This document shows positions 1 through 27,856 of a stretch of DNA of 64,000 bases, piece by piece. How positions within the stretch are numbered: the stretch's first letter is position 1; every line of letters begins with the position of its first letter. Under the pieces are notes generated by a model. That model was given only the letters and a program-made list of their open reading frames with translations. It searched no databases and had not been told where the DNA came from. The translations under genes were made by a program, and so were the position numbers. Origin of the DNA: an uncultured beta proteobacterium (lineage in GTDB: Bacteria; Pseudomonadota; Gammaproteobacteria; Burkholderiales; Burkholderiaceae_B); contig CAIJKV010000189.1 of NCBI GenBank assembly GCA_903821335.1, positions 2,612 to 66,611 on the forward strand, in the 5' to 3' direction.

Positions 1-379
1 TATTGATCGGGCTTGCGGTATTGACGATCAGGTGCGACGTGTAGCCTTGAGATCCGTCGGCGTTCACCATCACGGCGAATATTTCACCATTTGAACGATC
101 GACCGCTTCCATTGCGGACTTGTTGCCGAACCAGCCGACTTGCACCTTGTTAAAACGCATGGCTTCGATGATGCCTGCGTAGTCTGAGGCAAAGAACGCT
201 TTGACGGTCAGGCCTGTCTGGCGTTGCATATCGTCGAGTAGCGGCTGCCAGTCCTGCTTGAGATTTTGCGACGCCTCGGTCGAAATGAAGCCAAAATTAA
301 TATCTTCAGCAAGTGCGATATTTGCACTGAAGGCCTGGGTCATTGCAATGACCACTCCGGCTGCGATTTTCTTGAGCAT
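1..379 (-). CDS. phnD: Phosphonate ABC transporter substrate-binding protein (5' part; continues beyond window start)
   Basis: Manual translation from ATG at 379: MLKKIAAGVVIAMTQAFSANIALAEDINFGFISTEASQNLKQDWQPLLDDM...FFASDYAGIIEAMRFNKVQVGWFGNKSAMEAVDRSNGEIFA. Signal peptide plus PhnD motifs; directly downstream of phnC. Confidence 0.92.
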   Translation of the reverse strand, partial: MLKKIAAGVVIAMTQAFSANIALAEDINFGFISTEASQNLKQDWQPLLDDMQRQTGLTVKAFFASDYAGIIEAMRFNKVQVGWFGNKSAMEAVDRSNGEIFAVMVNADGSQGYTSHLIVNTASPIN

Positions 380-410
380 GAATAAAGATCCAGTGATAAA
401 AAATTAAAGT

Positions 411-1271
411 TCAGGCTGCCTGTGCCAGGCGTGGGGGCGGTGCAATGTTGGCCGAGCCATGGCTTGCGGTTGTGGTGGCGCCAGCGATGTGTGGTGCCAG
501 GAGTTCGTCGACCTGAACGCCATAGAGCTTGCCCAGCAACTCAGGGGTGAGGCTTGAGGCCGGGCCGTCAAAAACAATCTTTCCCTGGTTCAGGGCAACA
601 ACCCGTTTGCAGTATTTGATTGCAACATCGACCTGATGCAGGGAGACGATAACGGTGCTGCCGTCTTCACGATTGATCTTGGCCAGAATGTCCATGACTT
701 TTCTGGAAGACTCAGGGTCGAGAGAGGCGATGGGTTCATCCGCCAGCACAATGCGCGCACCCTGCACAAGCGTGCGCGCGATCGCAGCACGTTGCTGTTG
801 CCCACCTGACAGCGTCGATGCACGCTGGGCATGACAGTCCGCGATGCCGACCCGGGCAAGCGCGTCCAGGGCCATCGAGCGTTCCTGAGCGTTAAACATG
901 CCAGGGATACTGCGCCACCACGGCATGCTGTGCAGTCTGCCGGCAAGCACGTTGATCATGACCGACAGGCGATCTACCAGGTTAAATTGTTGAAATACAA
1001 AACCAACGCGCGCGCGAATCTTGCGGATATTGCGATCAACCTTGCCGTTGCGCTGCACACAGTCACCATGGATCTCAATCATGGATCCCGCATTGACGTC
1101 TGCCGCCACCAGTCCCGCGATATGTCGCAACAACGTGGATTTTCCAGAGCCTGACGCACCAATCAACGCCACCATTTCGCCGTGCCGGACCGTGAGGTTG
1201 ATCTGGCTCAGCGCAGGCTTATTGGCGATGAAATGTTTATTCAGGTGTTCAATGCGAAGCGCCAGTTTCAT
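411..1271 (-). CDS. phnC: Phosphonate ABC transporter ATP-binding protein
   Basis: Walker [18 protein letters not shown] signature, [20 protein letters not shown]. Start moved to ATG 1271 (MKLALRI), which follows an AGGGAG SD. Confidence 0.95.
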
Positions 1272-1300
1272 ACCGAACTCCCTGAGTGTGTGTGTCGGAT

Positions 1301-1345
1301 AGTATGGACAGAGGTTGTTACCGCCTGTTGACAGCGATGTGACCG
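1301..1345 (-). promoter_or_regulatory. PHO box plus -10 element upstream of phnC
   Basis: Minus strand CGGTCAC-ATCG-CTGTCAA-CAGG-CGGTAAC (11-bp period), a 10-nt spacer, then CATACT (-10). Confidence 0.75.
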
Positions 1346-1366
1346 ATTTATTGCTCCGCAGTGGGT

Positions 1367-2524
1367 TCAGAGGACTTGCTGCCCCTGACGCCACACGGTG
1401 CGCACCACTGCATGCCGGTGATGTCCAACCAGTCGGGCCATATGCACACGCACCAGGTCAGCGCGCAAGCCCTGTGCAATCATCCCGCGGTCGACCATGC
1501 CGGTCGCTTGCGCAGGCTTGCTCGTCACGGTTGCCATGGCCTGCGGCAGGGTCAGAATGCCATCGTCCACCAGTCGCATGACAGCGGTCAGCAGGCTGCC
1601 TGGCACGTAGTCTGAAGAAAGTATGTCCAGCAGACCTTCCCTGGCAAGGTCTGATGCCGCGACGTTGCCCGAGTGTGACCCACCGCGAACGACATTGGGG
1701 CCGCCCATCACGGTCAGCAAACCGCGTGCATGGGCCGCGCGTGCGGCGGCGAGCGTCGTGGGGAACTCGGACGTGCTCGCACCTTCCGCATGTGCTTGCG
1801 ATACATGTTCGACAGTCGTGTCATCGTGGCTGGCCAGGTGGATGTTGTGTGTTCGGCAGTAGTCGACAAAATAGCTTCGGTGTGGGGCACTATATTTGGC
1901 CTGCAACGTGGCAGCATTGCGCACTTTGTCTTCGAACTTGTCGTGACTCCAGCCCTTTTTTCCGGTGAAGTACGTGCGGGCCTGCTCGATATTTTCCCAC
2001 TGGCGTTGTCCGGGCGTGTGGTCCATGACCGAAATCAGAGACAACCTTGGGTGCCCCTGAAACGGTTCGAATAACGCGATGGTGTTCGGGGCGGGCAGTT
2101 CACAGCGCACATGAAGGTGGTGGTCAGCCCGCAACAGGCCCCGGTCCGCACAGGTGTCGATAGCGGCGAGCACGCGTTCCCAGGATTGCCCGCGGACGCT
2201 TTCAACATCAGCTTCGCCGACACCGAGCGCATCAAGGACGGTGGTGATCCCGGCGGCCGCGATCTCTGCGTCGTGCGCGAGCAATGCGGGGACTTCTGCC
2301 CAACTGACCTTGGGGCGAGGCATCAGGTGCCGTTCGAAGTTGTCGGTATGCACCTCGACTAAACCCGGAATCAGGTAGTCACCTTCAAAGTCGATGGCGC
2401 CGGGCGACGATGTGGTGCCGCTGCTGATCGACGCGATCTTTCCATTTTCTACCTGAACCGTGCCGGATATGATCTCATCGCCCAGGACAATGTTTGCATT
2501 TTTAAGTAAATAGCTGGTTCTCAT
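1367..2524 (-). CDS. phnM: Alpha-D-ribose 1-methylphosphonate 5-triphosphate diphosphatase
   Basis: Amidohydrolase [25 protein letters not shown]-like, ASHDD, GGSHSGN, SSDYVP motifs. Confidence 0.96.
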
Positions 2525-3240
2525 GCGTTGCTCCTGAAGGTGCCGACCAAGACATGTCGCGTGGCGATGCTGGCACCTACCTGGGCGTCGTGAAAAATTC
2601 CAATGGCGGCGCTGCCTTGGGCAATCGCTTCGCGAATCAATTCGATCACCGTTTCGGTATTGGCCGGGTCAAGCGAGGCCGTGGGCTCGTCAAGTAGCAG
2701 CAGTGGTCGCGGTTTGATCATGTTCCGAGCAATGTTGATTCGCTGTTGTTCTCCGCCCGAAAACGTGGCGGGTGGCAGGTGCCACAGCCGTTGCGGAATA
2801 CGAAGGCGTGTGAGCCAGGCTGACGCCTGGTCGCGCGCCGCCTTCAACCCGGCCATATCGTTGCCGGCATCTTCAGCAAGCGGTTCCGCGACGATGTCCA
2901 GGGCGCAGATGCGCGGAATCACACGCAGGAACTGACTGACGTAGCTAATGGAGTGCCGTCTGAGCGCGACCAGTTCGCGTGGTGTAGCGCGTGTGATGTC
3001 CAGGGCGGGCTGATCGTCGTGCTGCCTGAACTGAATGGAACCTGCGGTGGCACGATAGTTGGCATAAATCAGTTTGAGCAAGGTGCTCTTGCCCATCCCG
3101 GACGGCCCATCGAGCACCACACATTCACCAGGGCGCACTTCCAGATCCACTTTGTCCAGGACATTGAGTTCGATGCCATGTTGATTGTGCAGGGTGAATT
3201 GCTTTGCGACCCCCCGCATCTGAAGCAAAGGAAAGGTCAT
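2521..3240 (-). CDS. phnL: C-P lyase system ABC-type ATPase PhnL
   Basis: GPSGMGKST, YVSQFLRVIPR, PATFSGGEQQRINIAR, LDEPTASLD. Confidence 0.96.
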   Translation of the reverse strand: MTFPLLQMRGVAKQFTLHNQHGIELNVLDKVDLEVRPGECVVLDGPSGMGKSTLLKLIYANYRATAGSIQFRQHDDQPALDITRATPRELVALRRHSISYVSQFLRVIPRICALDIVAEPLAEDAGNDMAGLKAARDQASAWLTRLRIPQRLWHLPPATFSGGEQQRINIARNMIKPRPLLLLDEPTASLDPANTETVIELIREAIAQGSAAIGIFHDAQVGASIATRHVLVGTFRSNA

Positions 3241-4022
3241 GGCTGCAACACTGAGGAAACGAGGAGTTGGGTATAGGCGTGTTGCGGGTCGTCCAGCACC
3301 TGGTCAGTGAGTCCTGATTCCACAATGCGACCACGTTGCATGACGATCATTCGATGTGCCAGCAGCCTGGCAACGGCCAGGTCGTGCGTGACGATGATGG
3401 CCGCAAGATGCATGGTGCGTGTCAGTTGACGCAGCAAGTCCAGCAGTTTGGCCTGGACCGACACGTCCAGTCCCGACGTGGGCTCGTCCATGAAGATCAG
3501 GCGTGGTTGCGTCACCAGATTGCGCGCGATTTGTAGTCGTTGTTTCATGCCACCGGAAAAGGTACGGGGCGTATCGTCGATGCGCCCCGGATCGATCTCG
3601 ACACGCTCGAGCCAATCCATCGCGGTTTCGCGCAAGCGCCCATAGTGCCGATGGCCGAGCGCCATCAGACGTTCCCCCACGTTGGCACCCGCAGACACAT
3701 CCATGCGTAGTCCATCCACAGCGTTTTGGTGCACAAAGCCCCAGTCTGTGCGCGCCAGCAGGCGCTGCTGGGCCTGACTCATGGAAAAGATGTCCTGCAG
3801 ACCCCTCTCACGCGTCGAGAATTGCACGCAGCCAGCGTCTGGCAGGCTGCGTGCCGCGATCGCATTGAGCAGGGTAGTTTTTCCTGAACCTGACTCGCCG
3901 ACGACGGCAAGGACTTCGCCTGGCCAGAGGTCAAAACTTGCGTCGGCCAGCGCCAGTCGCGTCCCGTAATGTTTGGTGATGCCCGACACCCGCAGGAGTG
4001 GTTCGCAATGTGTGGCGTTCAT
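3237..4022 (-). CDS. phnK: C-P lyase system ATPase PhnK
   Basis: GESGSGKTT, RTDWGFVHQ, SAGANVGERLM, FSGGMKQRLQIARNL, VLDDPQHAYTQLLVSSVL. Confidence 0.96.
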   Translation of the reverse strand: MNATHCEPLLRVSGITKHYGTRLALADASFDLWPGEVLAVVGESGSGKTTLLNAIAARSLPDAGCVQFSTRERGLQDIFSMSQAQQRLLARTDWGFVHQNAVDGLRMDVSAGANVGERLMALGHRHYGRLRETAMDWLERVEIDPGRIDDTPRTFSGGMKQRLQIARNLVTQPRLIFMDEPTSGLDVSVQAKLLDLLRQLTRTMHLAAIIVTHDLAVARLLAHRMIVMQRGRIVESGLTDQVLDDPQHAYTQLLVSSVLQP

Positions 4023-4996
4023 GTCGGCAGAACCTCCCGTTGAACGGCGTCTGATCGAACTGCATCCGATCGAAAGGCCTCGTTCTGAACAGCGCCCGGT
4101 CGTGCTGCCGTCACGACGGGTTGGCGGGACTGACAGTAGTCAGAGTCAGAGCAAACATGCATGCGTGTACCGGAGTCGTCGGTAATGACTTCATCCAGAA
4201 AACTGTCGGTGGCCCCGCATAGTTCGCAATGGGCATCCCAACGCTGCACCGCGAAGGGGTGGTCCTCGAACCCCAGGCTTTCTACCGACGTGTAGGGGGG
4301 CACAGCATAAATTCGCTTTTCGCGTCCCGCGCCAAAAAGTTGTAGCGCAGGGTTCATGTGCATTTTCGGATTGTCGAATTTTGGAATAGGGGAGGGCGAC
4401 ATGATGTATCTGCCATTGACCAGCACCGGGTAGTCATAGGTCGTTGCGATATGCCCATAGCGTGCGATATCCTCGTACAGTTTGACGTGCATCAGGCCGT
4501 ACTCCGCCAGGCCGTGGAGGGTACGGGTCTCGCGTTCGCGTGGCTCCAGTCTTTGCATCGGTTCCGGGACCGGAACCTGGTAGACCATCACCTGTCCTTC
4601 TTTCAGTGGTGTTTCCGGAATGCGGTGACGCGTTTGTATCAGCGTCGCCTCTTGCGTGCGGGTCGTCGTCGTGACTCGGGTGGTGCGTTCAAAAAAACGT
4701 CGGATATTGACTGCGTTGACGGTATCGTCAGAGCCCTGGTCGATGACCTTCAGAATCTCATCAGGACCAATCACCGAGGCCGTGATCTGGATCCCGCCGG
4801 TGCCCCAGCCGTAGGGCAAGGGCATCTCGCGTGAGCCAAAGGGAACCTGATATCCGGGGATCGCAACCGCCTTGAGCAGGGCGCGACGGATCATGCGTTT
4901 GGTCCGCTCATCCAGATAGCCAAAATTAAAGGCCGGCCGCGCGGTCGAGTCGTTGACCGCAGCGGGTGTTGTGGCGGGACATGTGTTGTCAGGCAT
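4019..4996 (-). CDS. phnJ: Radical-SAM C-P lyase PhnJ
   Basis: YNFGYLDE-like, REMPLPYGWGTGG, DQGSDDTVNA, SPSPIPKFD, and the CELCG...VCSDSDYC Fe-S motif. Start set at ATG 4996 (MPDNT). Confidence 0.96.
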   Translation of the reverse strand: MPDNTCPATTPAAVNDSTARPAFNFGYLDERTKRMIRRALLKAVAIPGYQVPFGSREMPLPYGWGTGGIQITASVIGPDEILKVIDQGSDDTVNAVNIRRFFERTTRVTTTTRTQEATLIQTRHRIPETPLKEGQVMVYQVPVPEPMQRLEPRERETRTLHGLAEYGLMHVKLYEDIARYGHIATTYDYPVLVNGRYIMSPSPIPKFDNPKMHMNPALQLFGAGREKRIYAVPPYTSVESLGFEDHPFAVQRWDAHCELCGATDSFLDEVITDDSGTRMHVCSDSDYCQSRQPVVTAARPGAVQNEAFRSDAVRSDAVQREVLPT

Positions 4997-6113
4997 CTCT
5001 GTTTTCTCCAGCACGCTTGGAGTCGTCGCACTTGGCTTGTGCACGCATTGTTCGCACCAGATCCAGTTCTGCCTGGAAGTCGACGTAATGAGGCAATTTG
5101 AGATGCTGGACAAAGCCAGAAGCCTCCAGGCTGTCGCTATGCGACAACACGAATTCCTGCATTTGTGCCGGGGATTCGATCGACTCACCCAATTCGTCGG
5201 CGCGCAACGCGCGATCAACCAGACTCATCGCCATGGCTTTGCGCTCGCTGTGTCCAAACGCCAGGCCATAGCCGCGCGTAAATGTTGGCGGCTCTGAGGC
5301 CGAGCCTGCGAACTGGTTCACCATTTCACATTCCGTCAGTTCGATGTCCCCGAGCGAGATCGCGAAGCCTAGTTCAGGCGGAACAAATTCGACGGCAACG
5401 GTCCCAAGCCGAATTTCACCGACGAAAGGATGGCTGTGCGAGTAGCCACGTTGAGTGGAATACGCCATGGCCAGCAGGAAGCCCTCGTCACCCCGCGCAA
5501 GATTCTGCAGCCGTGTCGCGCGATCTGCCGGGAATCTCAGCGGCTCACGGGTCAGATCCATAGGCGGCGGATCATTTTCCGGGACGGGGTGCGTTTCAAT
5601 CAACCCCTCGTGATTGAGTAGATCCACCACCCGTGGTGGCGGCTGTGTCGCAGCGCTTGCGGCGGTGCAGACTGACGCCGCCGCTGCTGTCAGGTCGCTT
5701 TGCGCATTGGCCAGCAACGTGAAATCCAGTAGCCGTTGCGTGTAGTCATAGGTTGGCCCAAGAACCTGGCCGCCCGGGATATCTTTGAACGTTGCGGAAA
5801 TGCGGCGATCGAGCTGCATGCGCGAAGTCTCGAGTGGACAAGTTGAACCGATGCGGGGCAACGTGGCACGGTAGGCGCGCAAGAGGAAAATGGCTTCAAT
5901 CAAGTCACCGCTGGCTTGTTTGATTGCCAGTGCGGCCAGTTCGCGGTCGTAGACGGAGCCTTCCGTCATCACACGATCAACGGCCAGCTTGAGTTGACTC
6001 TGGATTTGTCTCGTCGTGAGTTCAGCCCAAGCGGTGTCGCCGCGCCGCTGGACGGCCAGCAGCGCGTAACTGTTCAGAATGGCTTGTTCGCCTCCCTTGA
6101 CTGCGACATACAT
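4989..6113 (-). CDS. phnI: C-P lyase complex subunit PhnI
   Basis: MYVAVKGGEQAI N-terminus, RRISATFKDIPGGQVLGPTYDY, GFVQHLKLPHYVDFQAEL. Confidence 0.96.
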   Translation of the reverse strand: MYVAVKGGEQAILNSYALLAVQRRGDTAWAELTTRQIQSQLKLAVDRVMTEGSVYDRELAALAIKQASGDLIEAIFLLRAYRATLPRIGSTCPLETSRMQLDRRISATFKDIPGGQVLGPTYDYTQRLLDFTLLANAQSDLTAAAASVCTAASAATQPPPRVVDLLNHEGLIETHPVPENDPPPMDLTREPLRFPADRATRLQNLARGDEGFLLAMAYSTQRGYSHSHPFVGEIRLGTVAVEFVPPELGFAISLGDIELTECEMVNQFAGSASEPPTFTRGYGLAFGHSERKAMAMSLVDRALRADELGESIESPAQMQEFVLSHSDSLEASGFVQHLKLPHYVDFQAELDLVRTMRAQAKCDDSKRAGENRDA

Positions 6114-6115
6114 GT

Positions 6116-6766
6116 TCAGCGCTCCTGCGAAAAGTGAATATGTGTTGAGCGGGGCAGACCCGCGATCACGGTGGGGGCAGTGAACAGCACATCCACCCCA
6201 CGCGGAAAGCTCACCTGGTTGTCTGCCCACATCGACGCGAAGCACTCAAGAATCTCAAGGTGCAGCCCCGGAAAATTCAGCGTGCTGGTACCCAGGATCC
6301 CGGGTCCTCGCAGCGTCAGGCAACCCGGCGCGACATGTCCAACGGCTGGGTTGTCCAGCTCTGGAACGTCGATCAGTACGGTCGTTGATTGGTCCGGATA
6401 ATCGTCGCTGCCAGTCGCGAACGACGCGAGCGAAGGCAAGTCAGCCATATCGCTGACCCACGCAAACTGTGCCTGTTTCGGGTCTTGTGTCAGCGCGCAA
6501 CCCGTATGAAACATCAGCCACGTCGCAGCCTGGCTATTGACCAGCTTTGGCGACAGCCAGAGGCGACAATCCTGATCAAGCAGAGCGAGCAACAGCGCCG
6601 AAGAGGTCGGGTGAAGTGCGTGCGGGATGTCGGCGTCTGGCGCGAGTTCGACCAGGCGCCCGGGATAAGACAGGGCACGCAGGGCGGCCCTGAAGGTGGC
6701 CTGGCTACCAAACGCCTCGTGTGCGAAGCCGGCACCGATTGTGGATAGATCGTGTGGTGTCATCAT
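6116..6766 (-). CDS. phnH: C-P lyase complex subunit PhnH
   Basis: SQATFRAALRALSYPG, LALLDQD, WLMFHTG, YPDQSTTVLI, LRGPGI, FPRGVD, GLPRST. Confidence 0.94.
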   Translation of the reverse strand: MMTPHDLSTIGAGFAHEAFGSQATFRAALRALSYPGRLVELAPDADIPHALHPTSSALLLALLDQDCRLWLSPKLVNSQAATWLMFHTGCALTQDPKQAQFAWVSDMADLPSLASFATGSDDYPDQSTTVLIDVPELDNPAVGHVAPGCLTLRGPGILGTSTLNFPGLHLEILECFASMWADNQVSFPRGVDVLFTAPTVIAGLPRSTHIHFSQER

Positions 6767-7266
6767 TCCTGATCCCCGTATTCGCCGAGATCCGACTCAC
6801 GCGCAACGGTAAAAAACTCAACCTTTGAACTGTCGGCGCGGTCCTGGCGTTGTGTGCGCAGTTCGCTCAGGTGTATGCGAATGGATACGAGCAACGTGGT
6901 GTCAAGTGCGGCGTGCTGATCCGGTGACTGAAGCAGTGCATCAGCCGTGGCCGCGAGTTGAGCCTGCCGGTGTGACCGACCCAGCACATACGCGATGCCG
7001 ACGTGGGGAGTGCTCGAGGGTGGGTTCAGCCGCAGCGCACAGCGTGTCACGGTGACCTCACCGAGATTGAACCGCGCACCCGTGCCGCCCGCACGACCTT
7101 GAATCATCATCAGGCCTGTCTCAGGCGCACGTAGCCATTTCGGTGCGTGCATGCTGTGCGCGCTTAACGCAGGTTCAAGCAAGCTGAGGGGAGCTCTTGC
7201 GAGTAGTGCCATCCAATCTGCACGGGCAGCAGATTGTGTGATTAGAGTGTCAGAGAATTGCAACAT
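6763..7266 (-). CDS. phnG: C-P lyase complex subunit PhnG
   Basis: WMALLA, RAPETGLMMIQGRAGGTGARFNLGEVTVTRC, ADALLQ, VEFFTVAR. Confidence 0.95.
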   Translation of the reverse strand: MLQFSDTLITQSAARADWMALLARAPLSLLEPALSAHSMHAPKWLRAPETGLMMIQGRAGGTGARFNLGEVTVTRCALRLNPPSSTPHVGIAYVLGRSHRQAQLAATADALLQSPDQHAALDTTLLVSIRIHLSELRTQRQDRADSSKVEFFTVARESDLGEYGDQE

Positions 7267-7312
7267 GAAATTGTTAATGTAAAAAGCTGTTCACAACAAG
7301 GATCAACGGGCA

Positions 7313-7346
7313 AGCATAGAGATGCCGCGTGTATCTTTGATGACAG
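7313..7346 (-). promoter_or_regulatory. PHO box plus -10 element of the phnG operon
   Basis: Minus strand CTGTCAT-CAAA-GATACAC, a 10-nt spacer, then TATGCT (-10). The first 11 nt are identical to the plcP box. Confidence 0.7.
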
Positions 7347-7349
7347 TCG

Positions 7350-7367
7350 TTGTCACAGGAATGAAAC
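7350..7367 (+). promoter_or_regulatory. Possible PHO box facing the DUF1045 gene
   Basis: TTGTCAC-AGGA-ATGAAAC; no clear -10 at the expected spacing. Confidence 0.3.
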
Positions 7368-7373
7368 AAAAAA

Positions 7374-8087
7374 ATGCATGAGACACCACTGACCAATGCA
7401 TATCGGTATGCGATTTACTTTGCCTCACGCCCGGACTCGGCCGATTGGCAAGCAGGCAGCAGGTGGCTTGGCAGATGCGCCGCCAGCGCAACAGTGGTGT
7501 CGCAACCGACTGTCGAAGGTGTGGCGCCGGAGGATTTCAACCGGCTGACCGCAGCACCCAGGCGCTATGGCTGGCACGCCACGCTCAAGGCACCTTTCGC
7601 GTTGCGGCACGGCATTGGGCTTGAGACGCTGCGCCAGGCGCTGAAACAACTGTCTGGGCAACTCAGTGCCTTTCAGATGCCAACCCTGTGTGCCAGAAAG
7701 CTCGACGATTTTCTTGCGCTCGCCCCTGTCACCGCAAGCCCGCAAATAGACAGGGTGGCCAGACAATGTGTGACCACCCTGCACGCATTCGCAGCACCAC
7801 TCTCAGCAGAAGCACTTGCGCGTCGACGCGCTGGCGGCCTGACACCAGAGGAAGATGCCTTACTCGTGCGCTGGGGGTATCCCTTTGTGCTGGAACGCTT
7901 TCAGTTTCACCTGTCGTTGACAGGATCATTGAAGGGTGTGTCGCCAGAGCGGATCGATGCAATACAAACCGCCGCAGTGCAGACATTTCAAACCATACCG
8001 CCGTGCCAGTTTGATTCCATCGCCCTATTCGCTGAACCCCGGCCCGGTGCAGATTTTGTGCTGCTTGAACACTTTGCTTTCAGGTAG
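7374..8087 (+). CDS. DUF1045 family phosphonate-metabolism protein (2H phosphoesterase fold)
   Basis: RYAIYFA, PRRYGWHATLKAPF, WGYPFV..FQFHLSLTG; two H-x-T/S motifs; divergent from phnG. Confidence 0.88.
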   Translation: MHETPLTNAYRYAIYFASRPDSADWQAGSRWLGRCAASATVVSQPTVEGVAPEDFNRLTAAPRRYGWHATLKAPFALRHGIGLETLRQALKQLSGQLSAFQMPTLCARKLDDFLALAPVTASPQIDRVARQCVTTLHAFAAPLSAEALARRRAGGLTPEEDALLVRWGYPFVLERFQFHLSLTGSLKGVSPERIDAIQTAAVQTFQTIPPCQFDSIALFAEPRPGADFVLLEHFAFR

Positions 8088-8146
8088 TGGAATGGACTAT
8101 TGGCATGAACGCCATGGATGCGTGGACCGGTCGCAGCCCTGGCTCT

Positions 8147-8202
8147 CTGTCATCAAATCATCACCAGACCGTCACAACGGTGTCAATTCGCAGGTGCATT
8201 GT
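8147..8202 (+). promoter_or_regulatory. Four-repeat PHO box plus -10 upstream of plcP-agt
   Basis: CTGTCAT-CAAA-TCATCAC-CAGA-CCGTCAC-AACG-GTGTCAA (8147-8186), a 10-nt spacer, then CATTGT (8197-8202). Confidence 0.8.
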
Positions 8203-8210
8203 GACTAGTC

Positions 8211-9029
8211 ATGAGACCCACCGAGCCGTTTACGTCCGACCCCGACCCCGTCCCCGTCCACCACCGTGCCATATGGATATCAGACATTCACCTTGGCACG
8301 GCAGGTTGCAAAGCGGAATACCTGCTGGATTTCTTGAAGTGGCACGAATGCGACCACCTGTATCTGGTGGGCGACATTATCGACGGCTGGCAGTTGAGAA
8401 AAAACTGGTACTGGAAACAGAGTCACAACGATGTCGTGCAAAAGATTTTGCGCAAAGCCCGCAAAGGAACGCGCGTGGTCTACATCGCAGGGAATCACGA
8501 CGAAGTCATTCGTCAGTTCATTGGCCTGGCCTTTGGTGATATTGAGATCGCAGACGAGACGACACACCAGTTGCTGGATGGCCGAATTCTGTGGATCACG
8601 CACGGTGATCTCTTTGATGGACTGATCCAGCACGCGAAATGGCTTGCCTATCTGGGTGATGGCCTCTACACGGTGATCCTCAAGTTAAACAACACCTTCA
8701 ATCACATTCGTCACCGACTGGGCCTGTCGTACTGGTCGTTGTCGCAATACCTGAAGCACAAGGTCAAGAACGCAGTGTCGTTCATTACCGAATTTGAAGA
8801 AGTGCTGACGGCCGAGGCCAGGCGTCGGGGCTATGACGGCGTGCTGTGCGGCCACATTCATCAGGCCGAGATCCGTGACGTCAACGGCATCCTGTATTGC
8901 AATGACGGCGACTGGGTCGAGAGCCTGTCTGCCATCGTCGAGACCACAACCGGAGAGCTAAAGGTTGTCTATTGGCATCAACGTGCCAGCCCATCCGTTA
9001 CGGAGCCCTCCCATGCCACAACAGTCTGA
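8211..9029 (+). CDS. plcP: PlcP-type Mn-dependent phospholipase C (LpxH2-like metallophosphoesterase)
   Basis: ISDIHLG, LVGDIIDGW, NDVVQKILRKARKG, GNHD, HGD, CGHIH, NDGDWVES; paired with a GT4 gene and PHO boxes. Confidence 0.82.
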   Translation: MRPTEPFTSDPDPVPVHHRAIWISDIHLGTAGCKAEYLLDFLKWHECDHLYLVGDIIDGWQLRKNWYWKQSHNDVVQKILRKARKGTRVVYIAGNHDEVIRQFIGLAFGDIEIADETTHQLLDGRILWITHGDLFDGLIQHAKWLAYLGDGLYTVILKLNNTFNHIRHRLGLSYWSLSQYLKHKVKNAVSFITEFEEVLTAEARRRGYDGVLCGHIHQAEIRDVNGILYCNDGDWVESLSAIVETTTGELKVVYWHQRASPSVTEPSHATTV

Positions 9030-10080
9030 ACTGCCACAATCTTCCGCGCGCAAGCTCTCCGGAATCAGGAGCCTGCTGATTGTCACCGATGCCGCGGCCC
9101 CCCAAGTCAACGGGGTCGTGAGAACCATCGGCAACACCAAACATCATTTTGAGCAGATGGGCGTGAAAGTTGATTTGCTGACGCCTGAACGCTTCAGGAC
9201 AATTGCCTGCCCCAGTTATCCTGAAATCCGCCTGTCCCTGACGACCTCGAAAAGCGTTGAGCGCGTGATTGAATCGTTTAATCCCGATGCGTTGCATGTG
9301 TCGACCGAGGGACCGCTGGGCTGGGCCACGCGCAAGATCGCGCGCAAGCGCGGGTGGAACTTCACCACGGCTTATCACACGCGTTTTCCTGAATATGTGA
9401 ATGCACGCACGGGCATTCCAACCCCCTGGATCTACAACATTTTCCGCAGATTCCATTCGGCCTCCTCGGGCGTGTTGGCACCGACCAGGACGATCAAGGA
9501 CAATCTGCTGCTCAATGGCTTTGATCGAGTTGTTGAGTGGACGCACGGTGTGGATCACGAAATTTTTTATCCACGCGTTCAACAGCAACCGGCTGACTTG
9601 CATAACCCGATTTTCCTGTACGTCGGTCGACTGGCGATCGAAAAGAATGTCGAGGCGTTTTTAAAACTCGATCTTCCCGGGCAAAAATGGGTCGCTGGCG
9701 AGGGGCCGTTGCAGGAAGATTTGAAGCGGAAGTATCCCGAGGCTCGCTACATCGGTGTCCTGTCCCAAGGCGATCTGGCGACGTTGTACAGCCAGGCCGA
9801 TGTATTTGTGTTCCCCAGCCTGACTGATACCTTCGGGCTGGTCATGCTCGAAGCGATGGCCTGCGGCCTGCCCGTCGCCGCCTTTCCCGTGGCTGGCCCG
9901 ATTGACGTGATTGGTGACAGCCCTGCGGGCGCGCTTGACCACGATCTGCAAAAAGCTTGCTTGCAAGCGCTGAGTATCAAGCGGGAAACCGCAATCGCCC
10001 ATGCGAAAACCTATTCTTGGGAAACTGCGACGCGCCAGATGCAGGACGCGCTGGTATGGATGCGCGGTGAGAAGCGCTAA
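9013..10080 (+). CDS. agt: GT4 glycosyltransferase, Agt-like glycolipid (MGDG/GADG) synthase
   Basis: LIVTDAAAPQVNGVVRT, YPEIRLS, STEGPLG, TTAYHTRFPEY, VGRLAIEKN, FVFPSLTDTFGLVMLEAMACGLPVAA. GGAG SD at 9002; overlaps plcP by 17 nt. Confidence 0.78.
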   Translation: MPQQSELPQSSARKLSGIRSLLIVTDAAAPQVNGVVRTIGNTKHHFEQMGVKVDLLTPERFRTIACPSYPEIRLSLTTSKSVERVIESFNPDALHVSTEGPLGWATRKIARKRGWNFTTAYHTRFPEYVNARTGIPTPWIYNIFRRFHSASSGVLAPTRTIKDNLLLNGFDRVVEWTHGVDHEIFYPRVQQQPADLHNPIFLYVGRLAIEKNVEAFLKLDLPGQKWVAGEGPLQEDLKRKYPEARYIGVLSQGDLATLYSQADVFVFPSLTDTFGLVMLEAMACGLPVAAFPVAGPIDVIGDSPAGALDHDLQKACLQALSIKRETAIAHAKTYSWETATRQMQDALVWMRGEKR

Positions 10081-10092
10081 GGCTGCGGCAAC

Positions 10093-10845
10093 CTAGCGCC
10101 CGCCGGCGACATCAATCACTGAACCATGCACGTACGAGGCGGAGTCCGAAGCAAGCCAGATAGCGGCCTCGGCGACTTCGCGTGCGGTTCCGGCGCGACC
10201 CATTGGCACGATGGCACGGGCCCGCTCTTGCATTTCAGCAATGCCGCCGGTGGCATTGTGCATTTCGGTGCTGATCAGACCCGGGCGAATGGCGTTGACA
10301 CGAATGCCTTGTCCCCCAACTTCCTTGCTGAGCGCCAGGTTGAACGCGTCAATCGCACCCTTGGTTGCCGCATAGGCCACGCCGCCTGGCATGGTGCCCA
10401 GCCGCGCGGCGACCGAGGTCATATTGATGATCGAGCCACCACGCCCACCTTTGTCCGTGGACATTCTGAGGACCGCCTCCCTGGTGCAATAAAAGACGCT
10501 GAGTACGTTGGCGTTGAACATCTCGGCGACATTGTGCGCATTGATGTCTTCGACCAGGAAGGTCTTCAGAATTCCAGCGTTATTGACCAGAACATCAAGC
10601 GTGCCCAGCTGGTCATCGACCTTCTGGAACAAGTCCCGCACATCCTGCGGGTTGGTCGTATCTGCCTGTATTGCAATGGCCTCGCCGCCCTCGGCATGAA
10701 TCTGCTTGACCACTTCGCGGGCAGCCTCTTCGCTATTGAGGTAGTTGACCGCGACTTTGTAGCCTTCCCGACCCGCTAACAGCGCGATCTGGGCGCCGAT
10801 GCCACGACTGGCACCGGTGACCAACATTACTTTTTTCATCACCAA
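10093..10845 (-). CDS. Short-chain dehydrogenase/reductase
   Basis: [23 protein letters not shown]. Confidence 0.9.
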   Translation of the reverse strand: MVMKKVMLVTGASRGIGAQIALLAGREGYKVAVNYLNSEEAAREVVKQIHAEGGEAIAIQADTTNPQDVRDLFQKVDDQLGTLDVLVNNAGILKTFLVEDINAHNVAEMFNANVLSVFYCTREAVLRMSTDKGGRGGSIINMTSVAARLGTMPGGVAYAATKGAIDAFNLALSKEVGGQGIRVNAIRPGLISTEMHNATGGIAEMQERARAIVPMGRAGTAREVAEAAIWLASDSASYVHGSVIDVAGGR

Positions 10846-10849
10846 CCTA

Positions 10850-11731
10850 TTAGAAAGAAATCGTCTCGCCTTCGGTCATCGGGATGATCTTGATTGCGCT
10901 GCCTTTCATTGCCGCCTGGAACTCAGCCAGTGTGCCTGGGGTCATCGGATTGGAGTTGTAATGCATGGGGATCACTGCCTTGGGCTTGATCCAGGTCCGC
11001 AGGGCGTACGCTGCATCTTCCGGTCCCATGGTGAAGTTGCCACCGATCGGGATCATGACCAGATCGGGCTTATAGTGCTCGGCGATAAACTTCATGTCAG
11101 TAAAGAGACCGGTATCACCCATGTGCCAGATCTTGTAGCCGTTTTCGAGTTCAATGATGTAGCCGACAGGTTCGCCGCCCGGGTGGGCTTCTGGCTTGCC
11201 AGCTTCGTTGGGCCAGACGATCAGTGAAGAGTGTTCTGCGCGCACGGCCGTGACTTTGATGCCTGGCAGTGGCTTGACGGTGCCGGACTTGTTAAAACGC
11301 ATGCCCAGTTCCGGGGGGATTGCGCCGATGAGTGTCAGGGGTGTGACCATGTCGGCGGGGCCATACAGTTTTGTGTTGTTCAGCTTGGCGAGTGCAGGGG
11401 CGTCACCGAGGTGGTCAACGTGCCCGTGTGTCACGAGCAACAGGTCAATCTTGCCGATTTTTGCAAGGTCGTCTTTATATTCTTTCGGAGCCTTGGGGCC
11501 ACCCTTGATCCATGGATCGACCACGATCAGTTTCCCGCCGGGGGTCGTGATGCGCCAACCGGCTTGCCCCAGCCACTGGAGCTCGGTTTTGGCTTTCGGT
11601 GCTGCCTTGGCCGCGGCCGGGGCAGCGGGCGCCGCAGGGGCGGTCTGCGCCTGGGCGACGGAGCCAGCCAGCAAGGTGAAAACTGACAGCACCAGTGCGC
11701 ACTGAATCTTCAGGTTTTTGGTGGGTTTCAT
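10850..11731 (-). CDS. Secreted metal-dependent hydrolase, metallo-beta-lactamase fold (UPF0173-like)
   Basis: Signal peptide ending AQA, Ala/Pro linker, THGHVDHLGD, HMGDT, IPIGG, IPMHY. Confidence 0.82.
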   Translation of the reverse strand: MKPTKNLKIQCALVLSVFTLLAGSVAQAQTAPAAPAAPAAAKAAPKAKTELQWLGQAGWRITTPGGKLIVVDPWIKGGPKAPKEYKDDLAKIGKIDLLLVTHGHVDHLGDAPALAKLNNTKLYGPADMVTPLTLIGAIPPELGMRFNKSGTVKPLPGIKVTAVRAEHSSLIVWPNEAGKPEAHPGGEPVGYIIELENGYKIWHMGDTGLFTDMKFIAEHYKPDLVMIPIGGNFTMGPEDAAYALRTWIKPKAVIPMHYNSNPMTPGTLAEFQAAMKGSAIKIIPMTEGETISF

Positions 11732-11805
11732 TTGTTTCTTCTTTGTAAGAAATTTGTGTCCTCCAACATATCCATGGGCAGGGTCAGTGTCGATGCGTGT
11801 AAACC

Positions 11806-12807
11806 CTAATGTGATCCATGTGCAGGGGGCAAGATACCTTTGCGACGATCCATCCAGGCATTGAACTCGCCAATGACGCCGCGACGGAAGGCAAGCACGC
11901 AGAGGACGAATATCAGCCCAATGACAATCGTGACGGATTCGCCCAGGCGCTGGAACCAGGCCACGCCGGTTGTGTTGGCCAGGAAGGTGCCGAAGTCGCC
12001 GACTTTGTTTTCGAGCAGCACGACGATGAACGCGCCGAGTACGGGACCCAGCAGTGTGCCCATGCCACCGATCAGCGTCATCAGGATCACGAGTCCAGAC
12101 ATCTGCCAGGTGGCATCAGACAACGTTGCTGAAACAAAAATCAGCATCTTGGTGGCGCCTGCCAGACCGGCAAGCATGGCCGAGAGTACGAACGCCAGTA
12201 ACTTGAAGCGATCAACGTCGTAGCCCAGTGAAATGGCCCGCGGTTCGTTTTCACGAATGGCCTGAAGGACCTGCCCAAAGGGTGAGTGTACGGTGCGCCA
12301 GATAATGAAAAAGCCCAGCACAAAAATCCCCATCACCACGTAATACAGGTTCAGGTCGCTTTTGAGATCGAGCAGGCCAAACAGCATTCCCCGGGGCACA
12401 CCCTGCAGGCCATCTTCACCGCCGGTGAATTTCGCCTGAAGGAAAAAGAAGAACACCATCTGGGACAGGGCCAACGTGATCATCGCAAAGTAAATGCCGC
12501 TGCGGCGAATGGCCAGCGCACCCATGGCGAGCCCCAGGACACCGGCGACCAGCACGCCAAAGGCGATGCCGGCCTCGGTCGGCAACCCCCATATCTTGAT
12601 CGCATGGCCTGCCGCATAGGCAGCACTGCCCAGGAACGCGGCGTGACCAAAAGAGAGCAAGCCGGTAAAGCCCAGCAGCAGGTTGAAGGCGCAGGCAAAC
12701 AGGGCATAACACAACACCTTCATGACGAAGATGGGGTAGATCCCTGCAAGCGGTACTGCGGCCAACAGAATAAACAGAACGAGATAACCGAGCGCTTGAC
12801 GATTCAT
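11806..12807 (-). CDS. livM: Branched-chain amino acid-type ABC permease (LivM-like)
   Basis: NLLLGFTGLLSFGHAAF, YFAMITLA, TGGEDGL, AIRENEPRAISLGY, GGMGTLLGP. Confidence 0.88.
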   Translation of the reverse strand: MNRQALGYLVLFILLAAVPLAGIYPIFVMKVLCYALFACAFNLLLGFTGLLSFGHAAFLGSAAYAAGHAIKIWGLPTEAGIAFGVLVAGVLGLAMGALAIRRSGIYFAMITLALSQMVFFFFLQAKFTGGEDGLQGVPRGMLFGLLDLKSDLNLYYVVMGIFVLGFFIIWRTVHSPFGQVLQAIRENEPRAISLGYDVDRFKLLAFVLSAMLAGLAGATKMLIFVSATLSDATWQMSGLVILMTLIGGMGTLLGPVLGAFIVVLLENKVGDFGTFLANTTGVAWFQRLGESVTIVIGLIFVLCVLAFRRGVIGEFNAWMDRRKGILPPAHGSH

Positions 12808-13691
12808 TTTTCCTTCCCGAAGAGCCCGGCGGGACGCACAAATAACACGATAGCCATGATGATGAATACAACCGTACTTGAGGCCTCAGGCCAGAAGACC
12901 TTGGTGAAACCTTCGATGATGCCCAGGCCAAGGCCCGTGACAATGGCACCCATGATGGAACCCATTCCGCCAATCACGACGACCGCGAAGACGACGATGA
13001 TCAGATTCGAGCCCATCAATGGTGAAATTTGCAATACTGGTGCGGCAAGTACGCCTGCGAAACCCGCCAATGCCACGCCAAAGCCGTAGGTGAGAGTGAT
13101 CATGAGCGGAACGTTCACGCCGAACGCTTCGACCAGGCGAGGATTTTCAGTGGCGGCGCGCAGCAAGGCACCCAGCCGGGTGCGCTCGATGACATACCAG
13201 GTAATCAGACAGACGACCACGGAAGCCACGACGACCCAGGCACGGTAGTTGGGCAAGATCATGAAGCCCAGGTTGGTGGCACCACGCAGGATATCGGGTG
13301 TGGCGTAGGGCTGACCCGAGACTCCATAGATACTGCGAAACAATCCTTCCATCAGCAAGGTGATGCCAAACGTCAGCAGCAAACCATAGAGATGGTCGAG
13401 TTTGTAGAGGTGCTTGAGCAGGAGCTTTTCGATCACGATGCCGAACAGGCCCACCAGAATCGGTGAGAGCGCCAGCATGACCCAGTAGTTCAACCCGAAA
13501 TAGGACATGCCCATCCAGGCCAGGAACGCGCCAAACATGTACAACGCCCCATGGGCGAAGTTGATGACGTTGAGTAGCCCGAAAATAACGGCCAGGCCGA
13601 GCGACAGAATGGCGTAGAAAGAGCCATTGACCAAGCCCAGCAGGAGCTGGCCCAGCAAAGCTTGTATGGGTATGCCAAAGAGTGTAGTCAT
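12804..13691 (-). CDS. livH: Branched-chain amino acid-type ABC permease (LivH-like)
   Basis: GLAVIFGLLNVINFAHG, RTRLGALLRA, VVVIGGMGSI. Confidence 0.88.
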   Translation of the reverse strand: MTTLFGIPIQALLGQLLLGLVNGSFYAILSLGLAVIFGLLNVINFAHGALYMFGAFLAWMGMSYFGLNYWVMLALSPILVGLFGIVIEKLLLKHLYKLDHLYGLLLTFGITLLMEGLFRSIYGVSGQPYATPDILRGATNLGFMILPNYRAWVVVASVVVCLITWYVIERTRLGALLRAATENPRLVEAFGVNVPLMITLTYGFGVALAGFAGVLAAPVLQISPLMGSNLIIVVFAVVVIGGMGSIMGAIVTGLGLGIIEGFTKVFWPEASSTVVFIIMAIVLFVRPAGLFGKEK

Positions 13692-13728
13692 CGTGTATCA
13701 GTCAAACGAAGAACGGACAGATCAACAA

Positions 13729-13762
13729 GGGCCTGTTGTTGCTCATATCGCACAACAGGCCC
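13729..13762. terminator. Intercistronic stem-loop after the SBP gene
   Basis: GGGCCTGTTGT-N12-ACAACAGGCCC inverted repeat. Confidence 0.55.
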
Positions 13763-13771
13763 GTTGCTGAT

Positions 13772-14986
13772 TTATTTTTTGATGAAGCCACAAGTGGATT
13801 CGGAAAGTTTGGCGTAGACCTCTTCTCCGGGCAACTTGGCCACGATGTTGTAGTAGTCCCAGGGTCCCTTGGATTCGGCCGGTGTCTTGACCTTCATCAG
13901 GTACATGTCGTGGACCATGCGGCCATCTTCACGTACGTAGCCGCCTTGGGCGAAGAAGTCGTTGATCTTGGTGGACTTCATCCACTTCATGATGGTGTCG
14001 GCGTCGTCCGTACCGGTGGCCTTGATGCCATTGAGGTAGAACGTGACTGCGGAATAATCGGCAGCCTGCAGCATCGACGGTTTACGCTTGATTTTTTCTT
14101 CGAACCTGGCTGCCCAGGCGCGCGAGGCGTCGGACTGGTCCCAGTACCAGCCGTCCGTCAGGTACATGCCCTGCGTGGCTTTCAGACCGAGCGAATGGAT
14201 GTCGTTGATGAAAATCAGCAAGCCGGCCAGTTTCATCGTCGAGGTCACGCCAAACTCGTTGGCGGCCTTGATCGAGTTGACCGTGTCGCCACCGGCATTG
14301 GCCAGGCCGAGAATTTGCGCGCCCGAGGCTTGGGCCTGGAGCAGGAACGAGGAGAAGTCAGCGGTCGAGAGCGGTGCGCGCACCTGACCCTTGATTTCAC
14401 CGCCAGCGGACTTGACCACGGCGGCCGTGTCACGCTCGAGCGCTTGACCAAAGGCGTAGTCGGCCGTCAGGAAAAACCAGGTCTTGCCGCCATCTTTCAC
14501 CACGGCCGAGCCCGTGCCACGCGCCAGCGCCACGGTGTCATAGGCATAGTGCACGGTGTAGGGTGTGCAGGCTTTGCCTGTCATGTCGGAGGTGGCCGAG
14601 CCGATCGAGATGAACGGCTTTTTCTTTTCTGCGGCGACTGCGGCCATGGCCAGGTTGGTGGCAGAGTTCGTGCCGCCAATCAGCATGTCGATTTTCTGCT
14701 GGTCAAACCATTCACGTGCGCGTGACGAGGCGATGTCGGCCTTGTTCTGGTGATCAGCAGTTAGCAATTCGATTTTCTTGCCATTGATCGCGCCGCCCGC
14801 ATCGGCAATGGCCATGCGGATCGCTTCGACGCCGCCAGGACCGTCGATGTCGGAATACACGCCGGACATGTCAGAGATGATGCCGATGCGTATCACATCG
14901 TCGGAAATGCCCTGGGCGAAGGTGGGTTGCATGATGAAGCCAAGACCGGCTGTCATCAGCGCTGCGCTGAGTGTACGTAGTTTCAT
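13772..14986 (-). CDS. ABC transporter substrate-binding protein (Leu/Ile/Val-binding family)
   Basis: Signal peptide; DMSGVYSD, DHQNKADIA, WFFLTADYAFG, REDGRMVHDMYL. Confidence 0.9.
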   Translation of the reverse strand: MKLRTLSAALMTAGLGFIMQPTFAQGISDDVIRIGIISDMSGVYSDIDGPGGVEAIRMAIADAGGAINGKKIELLTADHQNKADIASSRAREWFDQQKIDMLIGGTNSATNLAMAAVAAEKKKPFISIGSATSDMTGKACTPYTVHYAYDTVALARGTGSAVVKDGGKTWFFLTADYAFGQALERDTAAVVKSAGGEIKGQVRAPLSTADFSSFLLQAQASGAQILGLANAGGDTVNSIKAANEFGVTSTMKLAGLLIFINDIHSLGLKATQGMYLTDGWYWDQSDASRAWAARFEEKIKRKPSMLQAADYSAVTFYLNGIKATGTDDADTIMKWMKSTKINDFFAQGGYVREDGRMVHDMYLMKVKTPAESKGPWDYYNIVAKLPGEEVYAKLSESTCGFIKK

Positions 14987-15074
14987 GTGTTGCTCCTGGG
15001 TGATGCTGCTGCGTTCATGAAGTATTTGTTATCAACACCGCGTGTCGACTGCACGCGTGCATATAAAAAGGGCG

Positions 15075-15785
15075 TCAGACACCGAGTAGTTCATCAAGCA
15101 CGGACTGCTTGGCGGCAAGTTCTGACGCGGCAAAGTGCTCAACGATCTGTCCGTGTTCCATGACATAGAAACGGTCTGCCAGCGGCGCGGCGAACCGGAA
15201 GTTCTGTTCGACCATGACGATGGTGTAGCCCTTGGCCTTGAGCATCTTGATCATGCGGGCGAGGGCCTGCACGATGACCGGTGCCAGGCCTTCCGAGATT
15301 TCATCGAGCAACAGCAGATCAGCGCCGGTGCGCAAGATACGCGCCACCGCAAGCATCTGTTGTTCGCCACCTGAAAGGCGGGTGCCAGGCGAATGGCGTC
15401 GTTCAAGCAAGTTGGGAAACATGTCATAGATTTCAGCCAGCGACATGCCACCACCGAGTGGTCCGACCGGGGGTGGCAGCAGCAGGTTTTCTTCACATGA
15501 CAGACTGGCAAAGATGCCGCGCTCTTCGGGGCAGTAGCCCACGCCCAGATGCGCCACCTTGAAGGTTGGCAAGTTGATTGATTCAGTGCCATGGATCTTG
15601 ATGGAGCCTTCACGGTCGCCAGTCAGTCCGAGAATGGCGCGCATGGTCGTGGTGCGCCCGGCACCATTGCGACCAAGCAGCGTGACGACTTCGCCTTTGT
15701 GGACGGTCAGGTCTACGCCATGCAGGATGTGGGATTCGCCGTACCAGGCGTTCAGGCCGGAGATTTCGAGTGCGGGCGTACTCAT
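15075..15785 (-). CDS. livF: ABC ATP-binding protein (LivF-like)
   Basis: GRNGAGRTT, LSGGEQQMLA, VEQN. Confidence 0.9.
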   Translation of the reverse strand: MSTPALEISGLNAWYGESHILHGVDLTVHKGEVVTLLGRNGAGRTTTMRAILGLTGDREGSIKIHGTESINLPTFKVAHLGVGYCPEERGIFASLSCEENLLLPPPVGPLGGGMSLAEIYDMFPNLLERRHSPGTRLSGGEQQMLAVARILRTGADLLLLDEISEGLAPVIVQALARMIKMLKAKGYTIVMVEQNFRFAAPLADRFYVMEHGQIVEHFAASELAAKQSVLDELLGV

Positions 15786-27749: not shown

Positions 27750-27806
27750 ATCGAAACAGCCCACCGGGGCGTGTTTGGTTTCTCAATGCGGTTTTGCAAC
27801 GGGTAT

Positions 27807-27844
27807 CAATAAAAACGGCGACCTTTCGGTCGCCGTTTTTATTG
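27807..27844. terminator. Bidirectional terminator between accD and rne
   Basis: CAATAAAAACGGCGACC-TTTC-GGTCGCCGTTTTTATTG. Confidence 0.92.
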
Positions 27845-27856
27845 GCCATTGCCCTC

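Follow-up and report, generated by a model that had tools for sequence, protein, structure and literature searches.

We analysed a 64,000-nucleotide stretch of DNA from an uncultured betaproteobacterium (hereafter the window; contig CAIJKV010000189.1, G000:C189:2612-66611 in our numbering). The region under study was positions 1-10080 of the window, where genes for phosphonate uptake (phnCD) and for cleaving carbon-phosphorus (C-P) bonds by means of C-P lyase (phnGHIJKLM) adjoin a DUF1045 gene and the membrane-lipid remodelling pair plcP-agt. The results indicate that this region very probably consists of neighbouring units of the phosphate (Pho) regulon, three and possibly four in number, each driven independently by PhoB, and that the order in which they stand side by side belongs to one genus. 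This genus is freshwater and Alcaligenaceae-like, and its nearest named relative is Zwartia.

In the mechanism that we propose, the -10 hexamer of each unit would lie exactly 10 nt downstream of an array of CTGTCAT-like heptamers, which have an 11-bp period and would replace the -35 element. One unit, phnCDE together with an HD-domain oxygenase gene, would serve phosphonate uptake. A second, phnGHIJKLM, would convert alkylphosphonates to 5-phosphoribosyl 1,2-cyclic phosphate and an alkane, which in the case of methylphosphonate is methane. DUF1045, divergent from phnG, would form a third; most likely it takes over the role of the missing PhnP and opens the cyclic phosphate. In the fourth unit, the translationally coupled plcP-agt, PlcP would strip the phosphorylated head group and Agt would glycosylate the diacylglycerol, giving phosphorus-free glycolipids. 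The plcP locus stands beside different phosphonate modules in different species of the genus.

The phosphonate and lipid-remodelling genes are contiguous and intact

An earlier reading of the same DNA (hereafter the original prediction) had described the phn genes, DUF1045 and plcP-agt as contiguous. Searches against Pfam and NCBIfam confirmed each of these genes in that arrangement, and all of them are intact (Table 1). The phnG, phnH, phnI and phnJ genes, together with phnK, phnL and phnM, form a complete set, each scoring above its family cut-off and free of internal stops. The cluster of the window lacks phnF, phnO and phnP. A search of the whole genome found no match to PhnF above the family cut-off, so control would rest on PhoB alone. 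For PhnP, the MBL-fold phosphoribosyl cyclic phosphodiesterase, the best match in the genome to TIGR03307 reached 22.9 bits against a cut-off of 272.

PhnN, ribose 1,5-bisphosphate phosphokinase, is encoded outside the cluster (TIGR02322, 176 bits; contig C220 17547-19547). The same single open frame also includes a C-terminal region, which appeared thymidine-phosphorylase-like by eye, with no family search made.

Table 1. Genes and predicted promoters of the analysed region and its left flank. Positions are those of the window unless a contig is named; TSS, transcription start site; RBS, ribosome-binding site.
Feature	Position	Strand	Family match, sequence or remark
phnE and HD-domain oxygenase gene	within contig C189 1-3014, left of window		continue the phnCD operon; HD-domain protein matches TIGR03276 'phosphonate degradation HD-domain oxygenase', 223.8 bits, above cut-off
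phnD, 5' part, phosphonate ABC substrate-binding protein	2..379	-	PF12974, TIGR03431; cut by window start
phnC, phosphonate ABC ATPase	411..1271	-	TIGR02315 301.6 bits, above cut-off; ATG 1271, GGGAG RBS upstream
P_phnC	1345-1301	-	CGGTCAC-atcg-CTGTCAA-cagg-CGGTAAC-aacctctgtc-CATACT; heptamers 1345-1339, 1334-1328, 1323-1317; 10-nt spacer; -10 CATACT 1306-1301; predicted TSS ~1294
phnM, ribose 1-methylphosphonate 5-triphosphate diphosphatase	1367..2524	-	NF011984 542.8 bits
phnL	2521..3240	-	TIGR02324 300.4 bits
phnK	3237..4022	-	TIGR02323 378.3 bits
phnJ, C-P bond-cleaving subunit	4019..4996	-	PF06007 495.5 bits; likely ATG 4996 behind GGAG
phnI	4989..6113	-	PF05861 539.2 bits; start 6113 behind AGGAG
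phnH	6116..6766	-	PF05845
phnG	6763..7266	-	PF06754
P_phnG	7346-7313	-	CTGTCAT-caaa-GATACAC-gcggcatctc-TATGCT; heptamers 7346-7340, 7335-7329; 10-nt spacer; -10 TATGCT 7318-7313; predicted TSS ~7306
Candidate fourth Pho-type promoter (DUF1045)	7236..7280	+	GTGTGAT-4-GTGTCAG-4-TTGCAAC-10 nt-TAATGT
DUF1045/TIGR03223, 2H phosphoesterase	7374..8087	+	PF06299, TIGR03223; motifs WHATL, FHLSL
P_plcP	8147-8202	+	CTGTCAT-caaa-TCATCAC-caga-CCGTCAC-aacg-GTGTCAA-ttcgcaggtg-CATTGT; heptamer starts 8147, 8158, 8169, 8180; 10-nt spacer; -10 CATTGT 8197-8202
plcP, intracellular phospholipase C, metallophosphoesterase type	8211..9029	+	PF00149, PF12850
agt, GT4 glycosyltransferase	9013..10080	+	PF13439, PF00534; likely ATG 9013 behind GGAG

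Three predicted Pho promoters share one geometry

PhoB binds Pho boxes in place of a -35 element. The original prediction had assigned one geometry to the promoters of phnC, phnG and plcP, namely heptamers with an 11-bp period, exactly 10 nt and then a -10 hexamer, and the three sequences read exactly as it stated. The in-phase heptamers number three at P_phnC, four at P_plcP and two at P_phnG, where the next heptamer upstream (CTGTGAC) is 12 bp away, not 11. The same geometry was found in this genome at the promoters of pstS (CTGTCAC-aaag-CCGTCAT, 10 nt, TATGAT) and phoB (TTGTCAT-aaac-GTGACAC, 10 nt, TACTAT). PhoB (TIGR02154, 366 bits) and PhoR (TIGR02966, 396 bits) are encoded side by side on contig C255, and the genome encodes one PstS. 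A scan with the sigma-70 consensus detected no -35/-10 promoter at P_phnC, P_phnG or P_plcP, which is expected where a Pho box stands in for the -35. We infer from these sequences that PhoB would bind at the three sites and that phosphate starvation would induce the genes behind them, with transcription beginning near the predicted start sites.

We then ranked the sites in the genome with a log-odds matrix for two heptamers and a -10 hexamer, which was written from the published Pho-box consensus and was untrained on this genome. The scan covered 7.9 million genome positions, with the reversed genome as control. It placed pstS at rank 1, phoB at 5, a second agt paralogue at 7 and phoU at 8 (each with 0 control matches at or above its score), a 768-aa alkaline phosphatase at 9 and P_phnC at 11 (1 control match each), P_plcP at 15 (2) and P_phnG at 54 (15). 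When the scan was extended to three heptamers, P_phnC ranked first in the genome with no control match, and P_plcP did the same with four. The three sites are more than chance matches and count among the best Pho-box sites of the genome. P_phnG by itself is weak and not significant; what supports it is its position and its conservation in relatives. Mismatch counting against CTGTCAY twice plus YAnnnT had also been tried; it gave 37 matches of mixed quality, did not separate real from chance sites and was replaced by the matrix.

The promoters are conserved in register among relatives

Across members of the genus the three promoters are conserved in register, with divergent flanks. For P_plcP, we stacked 12 distinct genus sequences on the ATG, and no indel occurred anywhere between it and the first heptamer. 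Their information content was 1.88 bits in the GTCA cores, 1.24 bits in the -10 hexamer and 0.82 bits in the spacers, compared with 0.43 bits further upstream. P_phnC reads nnnTCnn-CTGTCAA-nnGTCAT-10-CATAMT in relatives, again with three heptamers. At phnG, the proximal element CTGTCAY-nAAA-nATACAC-10-TAnGnT is kept in one subgroup (loci L007, L008, L015 and L017), which has up to six in-phase heptamers in an intergenic region of 148-154 bp, compared with 107 bp in the window; in a second subgroup the array is a different one, of four heptamers, again with the 10-nt spacer and with a -10 of the TAAGCT type.

The plcP promoter is the same where plcP is unlinked from phn, as in G005 and G007, which have plcP and the DUF1045-phn cluster on different contigs, and in genomes in which C-P lyase is missing (G003, G010 and G011). 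G013 and G014 have lost phnCDE from the stretch that separates phnM from the HD oxygenase gene, and the Pho box and the CATACT promoter remain. Also left at the site (L101 ~12030-12330, L102 ~12573-12774) is a short remnant in which the 5' end of phnC is fused to the 3' end of phnE.

The join of phn, DUF1045 and plcP is a feature of one genus

We searched 24 other species genomes of the genus and found plcP in 20 of them and phnJ in 16. At least nine of the 24 carry plcP and phnJ 3.3 kb apart in the arrangement of the window, and several more are split by contig ends. The adjacency is also shared by L018 and G177, two more genomes of the genus that came from other draws, bringing the count to at least 12 species genomes with the window's own. 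The full order in the loci that we fetched from the genus is HD-phnE-D-C, phnM-L-K-J-I-H-G, DUF1045, plcP.

Beyond the genus, the join proved to be unusual. Among 200 genomes that sampled 51 genera of the family, plcP and phnJ lay within 10 kb of each other in the window's genus only, and the join was not found in the other 50 sampled genera. The 65 best other plcP loci, from Burkholderia, Paraburkholderia, Cupriavidus, Ralstonia, Thiobacillus, Polynucleobacter and others, are mostly plcP-agt with a few plcP alone, and no phn gene lies within 10 kb of any of the 65. Among 400 genomes sampled across the phylum there was one other case of proximity, a 26-kb cluster in G586, which belongs to a different Burkholderiales family (L113/L114, G586:C1:150000-186000). 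This cluster contains PhoD, plcP, UDP-glucose dehydrogenase, GT28, a PS-decarboxylase-like gene, an aminotransferase, GT4 and MFS genes, followed by a pyruvate-kinase-like gene, an open reading frame (ORF) that is 2-hydroxyacid dehydrogenase-like by eye (not searched), DUF1045, phnG-M and HD-phnEDC. DUF1045 is divergently paired with phnG there, and plcP is 12.5 kb away. The G586 cluster is thus a looser version of the arrangement in the genus.

In other members of the genus, other genes are found beside plcP. In Zwartia panacis and three others, plcP stands beside a phosphonatase-type module (L023 8706-16995; also L024, L108, L111 and L112) in the order GT4 (31% identical to Agt), plcP, a second PhnCDE-type transporter, Fe-ADH, a TIGR03364 FAD oxidoreductase, PhnX and HD oxygenase. 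A PhnJ search of G008, G010 and G011 revealed no C-P lyase at the phosphonatase locus of these three, and none anywhere in the genomes of G010 and G011. In G024 (L019 10813-17109), plcP is followed by a convergent GT28-like glycosyltransferase gene, whose product is weakly similar to diglucosyl-diacylglycerol synthase, a PhnS-type ABC transporter and an SpdA-like cyclic nucleotide phosphodiesterase, and agt is absent from that locus. G003 has the plcP closest to that of the window, lacks phn genes and has different flanks.

The plcP message of the plcP-agt pair is probably leaderless

The PlcP translation contains the five metallophosphoesterase motifs DIH, GD, GNHDE, HGD and GHIH, and it scores 32-38 bits against LpxH models, far below their cut-offs. 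It is 66-72% identical to plcP products of Burkholderia species in the plcP-agt arrangement, and the Agt of the window is 56-59% identical to Burkholderia Agt encoded at the same position. The start of agt overlaps the end of plcP by 17 nt. From its motifs and identities PlcP is predicted to be a phospholipase C that releases diacylglycerol, and the agt product would make glycosyl- and glucuronosyl-diacylglycerol. The second Agt paralogue, with 351 aa and 51% identity to the Agt of the window, is encoded on the minus strand of contig C181 at ~27290-28347, and the Pho box ranked 7 is its own.

In all 12 genus sequences exactly 8 nt separate the -10 hexamer of P_plcP from the ATG, which is at 8211 in the window, with an in-frame TGA just upstream and no Shine-Dalgarno sequence. 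Since transcription would start ~7 nt past the -10 and the ATG lies 8 nt past it, the plcP mRNA is predicted to have no leader or one of 1-2 nt, and its translation probably starts without a leader. The short distance was also seen upstream of plcP in L007-L024, L051, L081, L083, L094 and L096. The distance from the -10 to the start is 6-8 nt in Zwartia, Polynucleobacter, Thiobacillus and other lineages, and ~27-30 nt in Burkholderia, Paraburkholderia and Cupriavidus. Automated distances, which often took the distal heptamer pair (30 nt instead of 8), were used after a check by eye. In the literature we found no paper on this leaderless spacing of plcP.

Further high-scoring Pho-box sites were recorded elsewhere in the genome. 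One at C133:3831 lies upstream of a gene for a SixA-like histidine phosphatase and again has leaderless spacing. The site at C185:126 is upstream of a GAPDH gene, and ~2.4 kb away on the same contig a further site precedes an ORF that is ArsC-like by eye (not searched). The remaining two are upstream of a gene for a secreted protein beside a response regulator (C404:2068) and of a gene for an outer-membrane-like protein (C358:3928).

DUF1045 is a probable replacement for PhnP

The product of PhnJ is 5-phosphoribosyl 1,2-cyclic phosphate. Because PhnP is absent from the genome, DUF1045 is the obvious candidate for the step that opens this cyclic phosphate. Its two H-x-T/S motifs, H68-A-T and H179-L-S, are invariant in the sequences aligned. 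Comparison with solved structures by sequence gave nothing meaningful, and a fold search was needed. We built a structure model (pLDDT 78, from an alignment of just 5 sequences) and searched with it in Foldseek; the top 14 matches were all 2H enzymes, on a duplicated alpha/beta lobe fold. The best match was the Arabidopsis Appr>p cyclic phosphodiesterase 1jh6 (E 4.9e-6, TM 0.55/0.70), an enzyme that opens ADP-ribose 1'',2''-cyclic phosphate, and LigT came next. The model thus points to DUF1045 being probably a 2H cyclic phosphodiesterase, a phosphoribosyl 1,2-cyclic phosphodiesterase that replaces PhnP; fold, gene context and the absence of phnP together suggest that it would hydrolyse 5-phosphoribosyl 1,2-cyclic phosphate. 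DUF1045 has long been known as an optional phn gene that occurs inside phn clusters elsewhere (PMC3266647), and its assignment to the PhnP step has already been suggested for Acidithiobacillus (PMC11893972).

None of P_phnC, P_phnG and P_plcP serves DUF1045. The gene travels with phnG and not with plcP, as the divergent DUF1045-phnG pair is kept where plcP is on another contig (L105 and L107). A candidate Pho-type promoter for it lies at 7236-7280. The matrix score of this site is weak (11.1), and its heptamers fall inside the first phnG codons (M-L-Q-x-S-D-S/T). CTGTCAG-N4-TTGCAAC-N10-TAnnnT is present on the DUF1045 strand in all relatives of the genus, but it overlaps conserved PhnG codons. 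We also considered DUF1045 as a part of the plcP unit and rejected this assignment, given its pairing with phnG where plcP is elsewhere and the separate Pho promoter of plcP.

Weighing of alternative explanations

Several points weigh against independent PhoB-driven units. The matrix was derived from a consensus and not from footprinted sites, and P_phnG alone was not significant in the scan. The plus strand of the 107-bp region between phnG and DUF1045 holds no convincing Pho promoter for DUF1045. DUF1045 and plcP are on the same strand with a gap of 123 nt, in which a terminator scan found no clear terminator and no more sites than in shuffled sequence, and transcription from DUF1045 may read through into plcP-agt. 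Orthology of plcP-agt to B. cenocepacia BCAL2364/2365 was assigned by identity and synteny with other Burkholderia species. Finally, the assembly is a metagenome-assembled genome of 408 contigs that is 94.7% complete. The heptamer arrays might be chance matches or the sites of another regulator, with the units outside PhoB control, and in favour of this are the score of P_phnG, no better than that of 15 reversed-genome control sites, and the home-made matrix. We consider it most improbable, since P_phnC and P_plcP lead the genome when three and four heptamers are scored, with no control matches, the same matrix recovers pstS, phoB, phoU and alkaline phosphatase, 12 diverged sequences show no indel between the first heptamer and the -10, and homologous genes are PhoB-dependent in other bacteria (PMC10132767).

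If DUF1045, plcP and agt formed one operon and DUF1045 acted on a product of lipid remodelling, the island would be a single machine. This would fit the shared strand, the short gap without a terminator-like hairpin and the DUF1045-plcP order kept in at least 12 species genomes including that of the window; it is nevertheless very unlikely, because the DUF1045-phnG pair persists with plcP on another contig or, in G586, 12.5 kb off, DUF1045 sits inside phn clusters elsewhere, the four-heptamer promoter 8 nt before the plcP ATG is also present in genomes without DUF1045, and outside the genus plcP-agt stands alone. We do not read the single island that had been predicted as one working unit: every transcription unit has a predicted Pho promoter of its own, and plcP keeps its promoter without phn. 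That this lineage acquired the region as one block, in the form of a phosphorus-scavenging island that moves horizontally, is a somewhat less remote explanation and still an unlikely one. The content beside plcP does vary (C-P lyase, a phosphonatase cluster, a PhnS-type transporter or nothing), G003 has the closest plcP without phn and with different flanks, and phnCDE is deleted in G013 and G014. However, G+C content and skew show no jump across positions 1-16000 of the window; ORF and family scans of 1-15 kb, which included no dedicated tRNA scan, found no integrase, transposase or tRNA gene; and an Rfam scan of the whole window returned no family at threshold. The flank to the right of agt, made up of a convergent SDR gene, a gene for a secreted MBL-fold hydrolase and liv-type transporter genes, is common to the window and its relatives. 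Since the plcP-agt pair is ancestral in Burkholderiales, any transfer would have involved the phn module at most. Independent neighbouring units in a genus-specific order thus remain our preferred explanation. Doubtful but worth stating is an extension of it, in which the plcP locus would be a fixed anchor beside which phosphonate modules are exchanged, with clustering selected through joint transfer or local PhoB supply, and plcP would be leaderless and PhoB-dependent in several betaproteobacterial lineages. The exchanged modules would be C-P lyase with DUF1045, phosphonatase and HD-oxygenase with their own PhnCDE-type transporter, and the PhnS-type transporter with the phosphodiesterase.

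Significance and comparison with known systems

Gene identity and, in silico, the regulatory wiring stand as originally interpreted, and the unity and the surprise of the arrangement were overstated. In Phaeobacter it has already been demonstrated that PhoB controls PlcP, C-P lyase and DUF1045 together (PMC10132767). The parts and their control are textbook; what is special to the genus is the side-by-side gene order, which holds steady in one part of the genus and varies around it. Nothing in this alters how the Pho regulon is understood, and the gene order is a lineage-specific detail. The analysis provides a Pho-box model, validated internally, for a freshwater betaproteobacterial genus that is uncultured, and this model can be used to predict the whole phosphate-starvation regulon. 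The genes for phosphonate use, which could release methane from methylphosphonate in lakes, lie next to those for phospholipid sparing, and the two sets are probably co-induced. Two side points are testable, the leaderless plcP message and DUF1045 as a 2H-type replacement for PhnP.

In E. coli, PhoB activates the phnCDEFGHIJKLMNOP operon from a Pho box that ends 10 nt before the -10 hexamer. The window encodes the same PhnCDE transporter and the same core and accessory proteins PhnGHIJKLM. In E. coli 14 genes form one operon behind one promoter, whereas in the window phnGHIJKLM is followed by phnCDE and the HD oxygenase gene under two Pho promoters, phnF, phnO and phnP are missing from the cluster, phnN is elsewhere and DUF1045 has been added divergently.

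The phn cluster of Agrobacterium tumefaciens CHLDO is transcribed as three phosphate-responsive polycistrons, phnFGHIJKLO, phnCDE2E1 and duf1045-phnMN, with PhoB boxes reported at P_phnG and P_phnC and a PhoB-like box at P_duf1045 (10.1101/2024.07.19.604230). There, duf1045 heads an operon with phnMN and the PhnF repressor is present, whereas in the window DUF1045 is alone and divergent from phnG, phnM follows phnL, PhnF is absent and plcP-agt comes after DUF1045.

In Burkholderia cenocepacia, plcP-agt-dagK (BCAL2364-2366) is induced by phosphate depletion, and both plcP and agt are required for the glycosyl- and glucuronosyl-diacylglycerols MGDG and GADG (PMC13691135); plcP-agt has the same role in B. 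glumae and B. plantarii (PMC13700237). The window has the same pair in the same order, but lacks dagK and has a convergent SDR gene after agt, and its plcP is beside phn genes, unlike that of Burkholderia.

In Phaeobacter sp. MED193, PlcP, C-P lyase subunits and the DUF1045 protein are induced by phosphorus depletion, as proteomics showed, and with a phoB mutant most of the proteins induced were assigned to the PhoB regulon (PMC10132767). We infer the same regulatory logic for the window. The Phaeobacter genes, however, lie ~50 locus tags apart, and PlcP is paired there with BtaA, for betaine lipid, and not with Agt.

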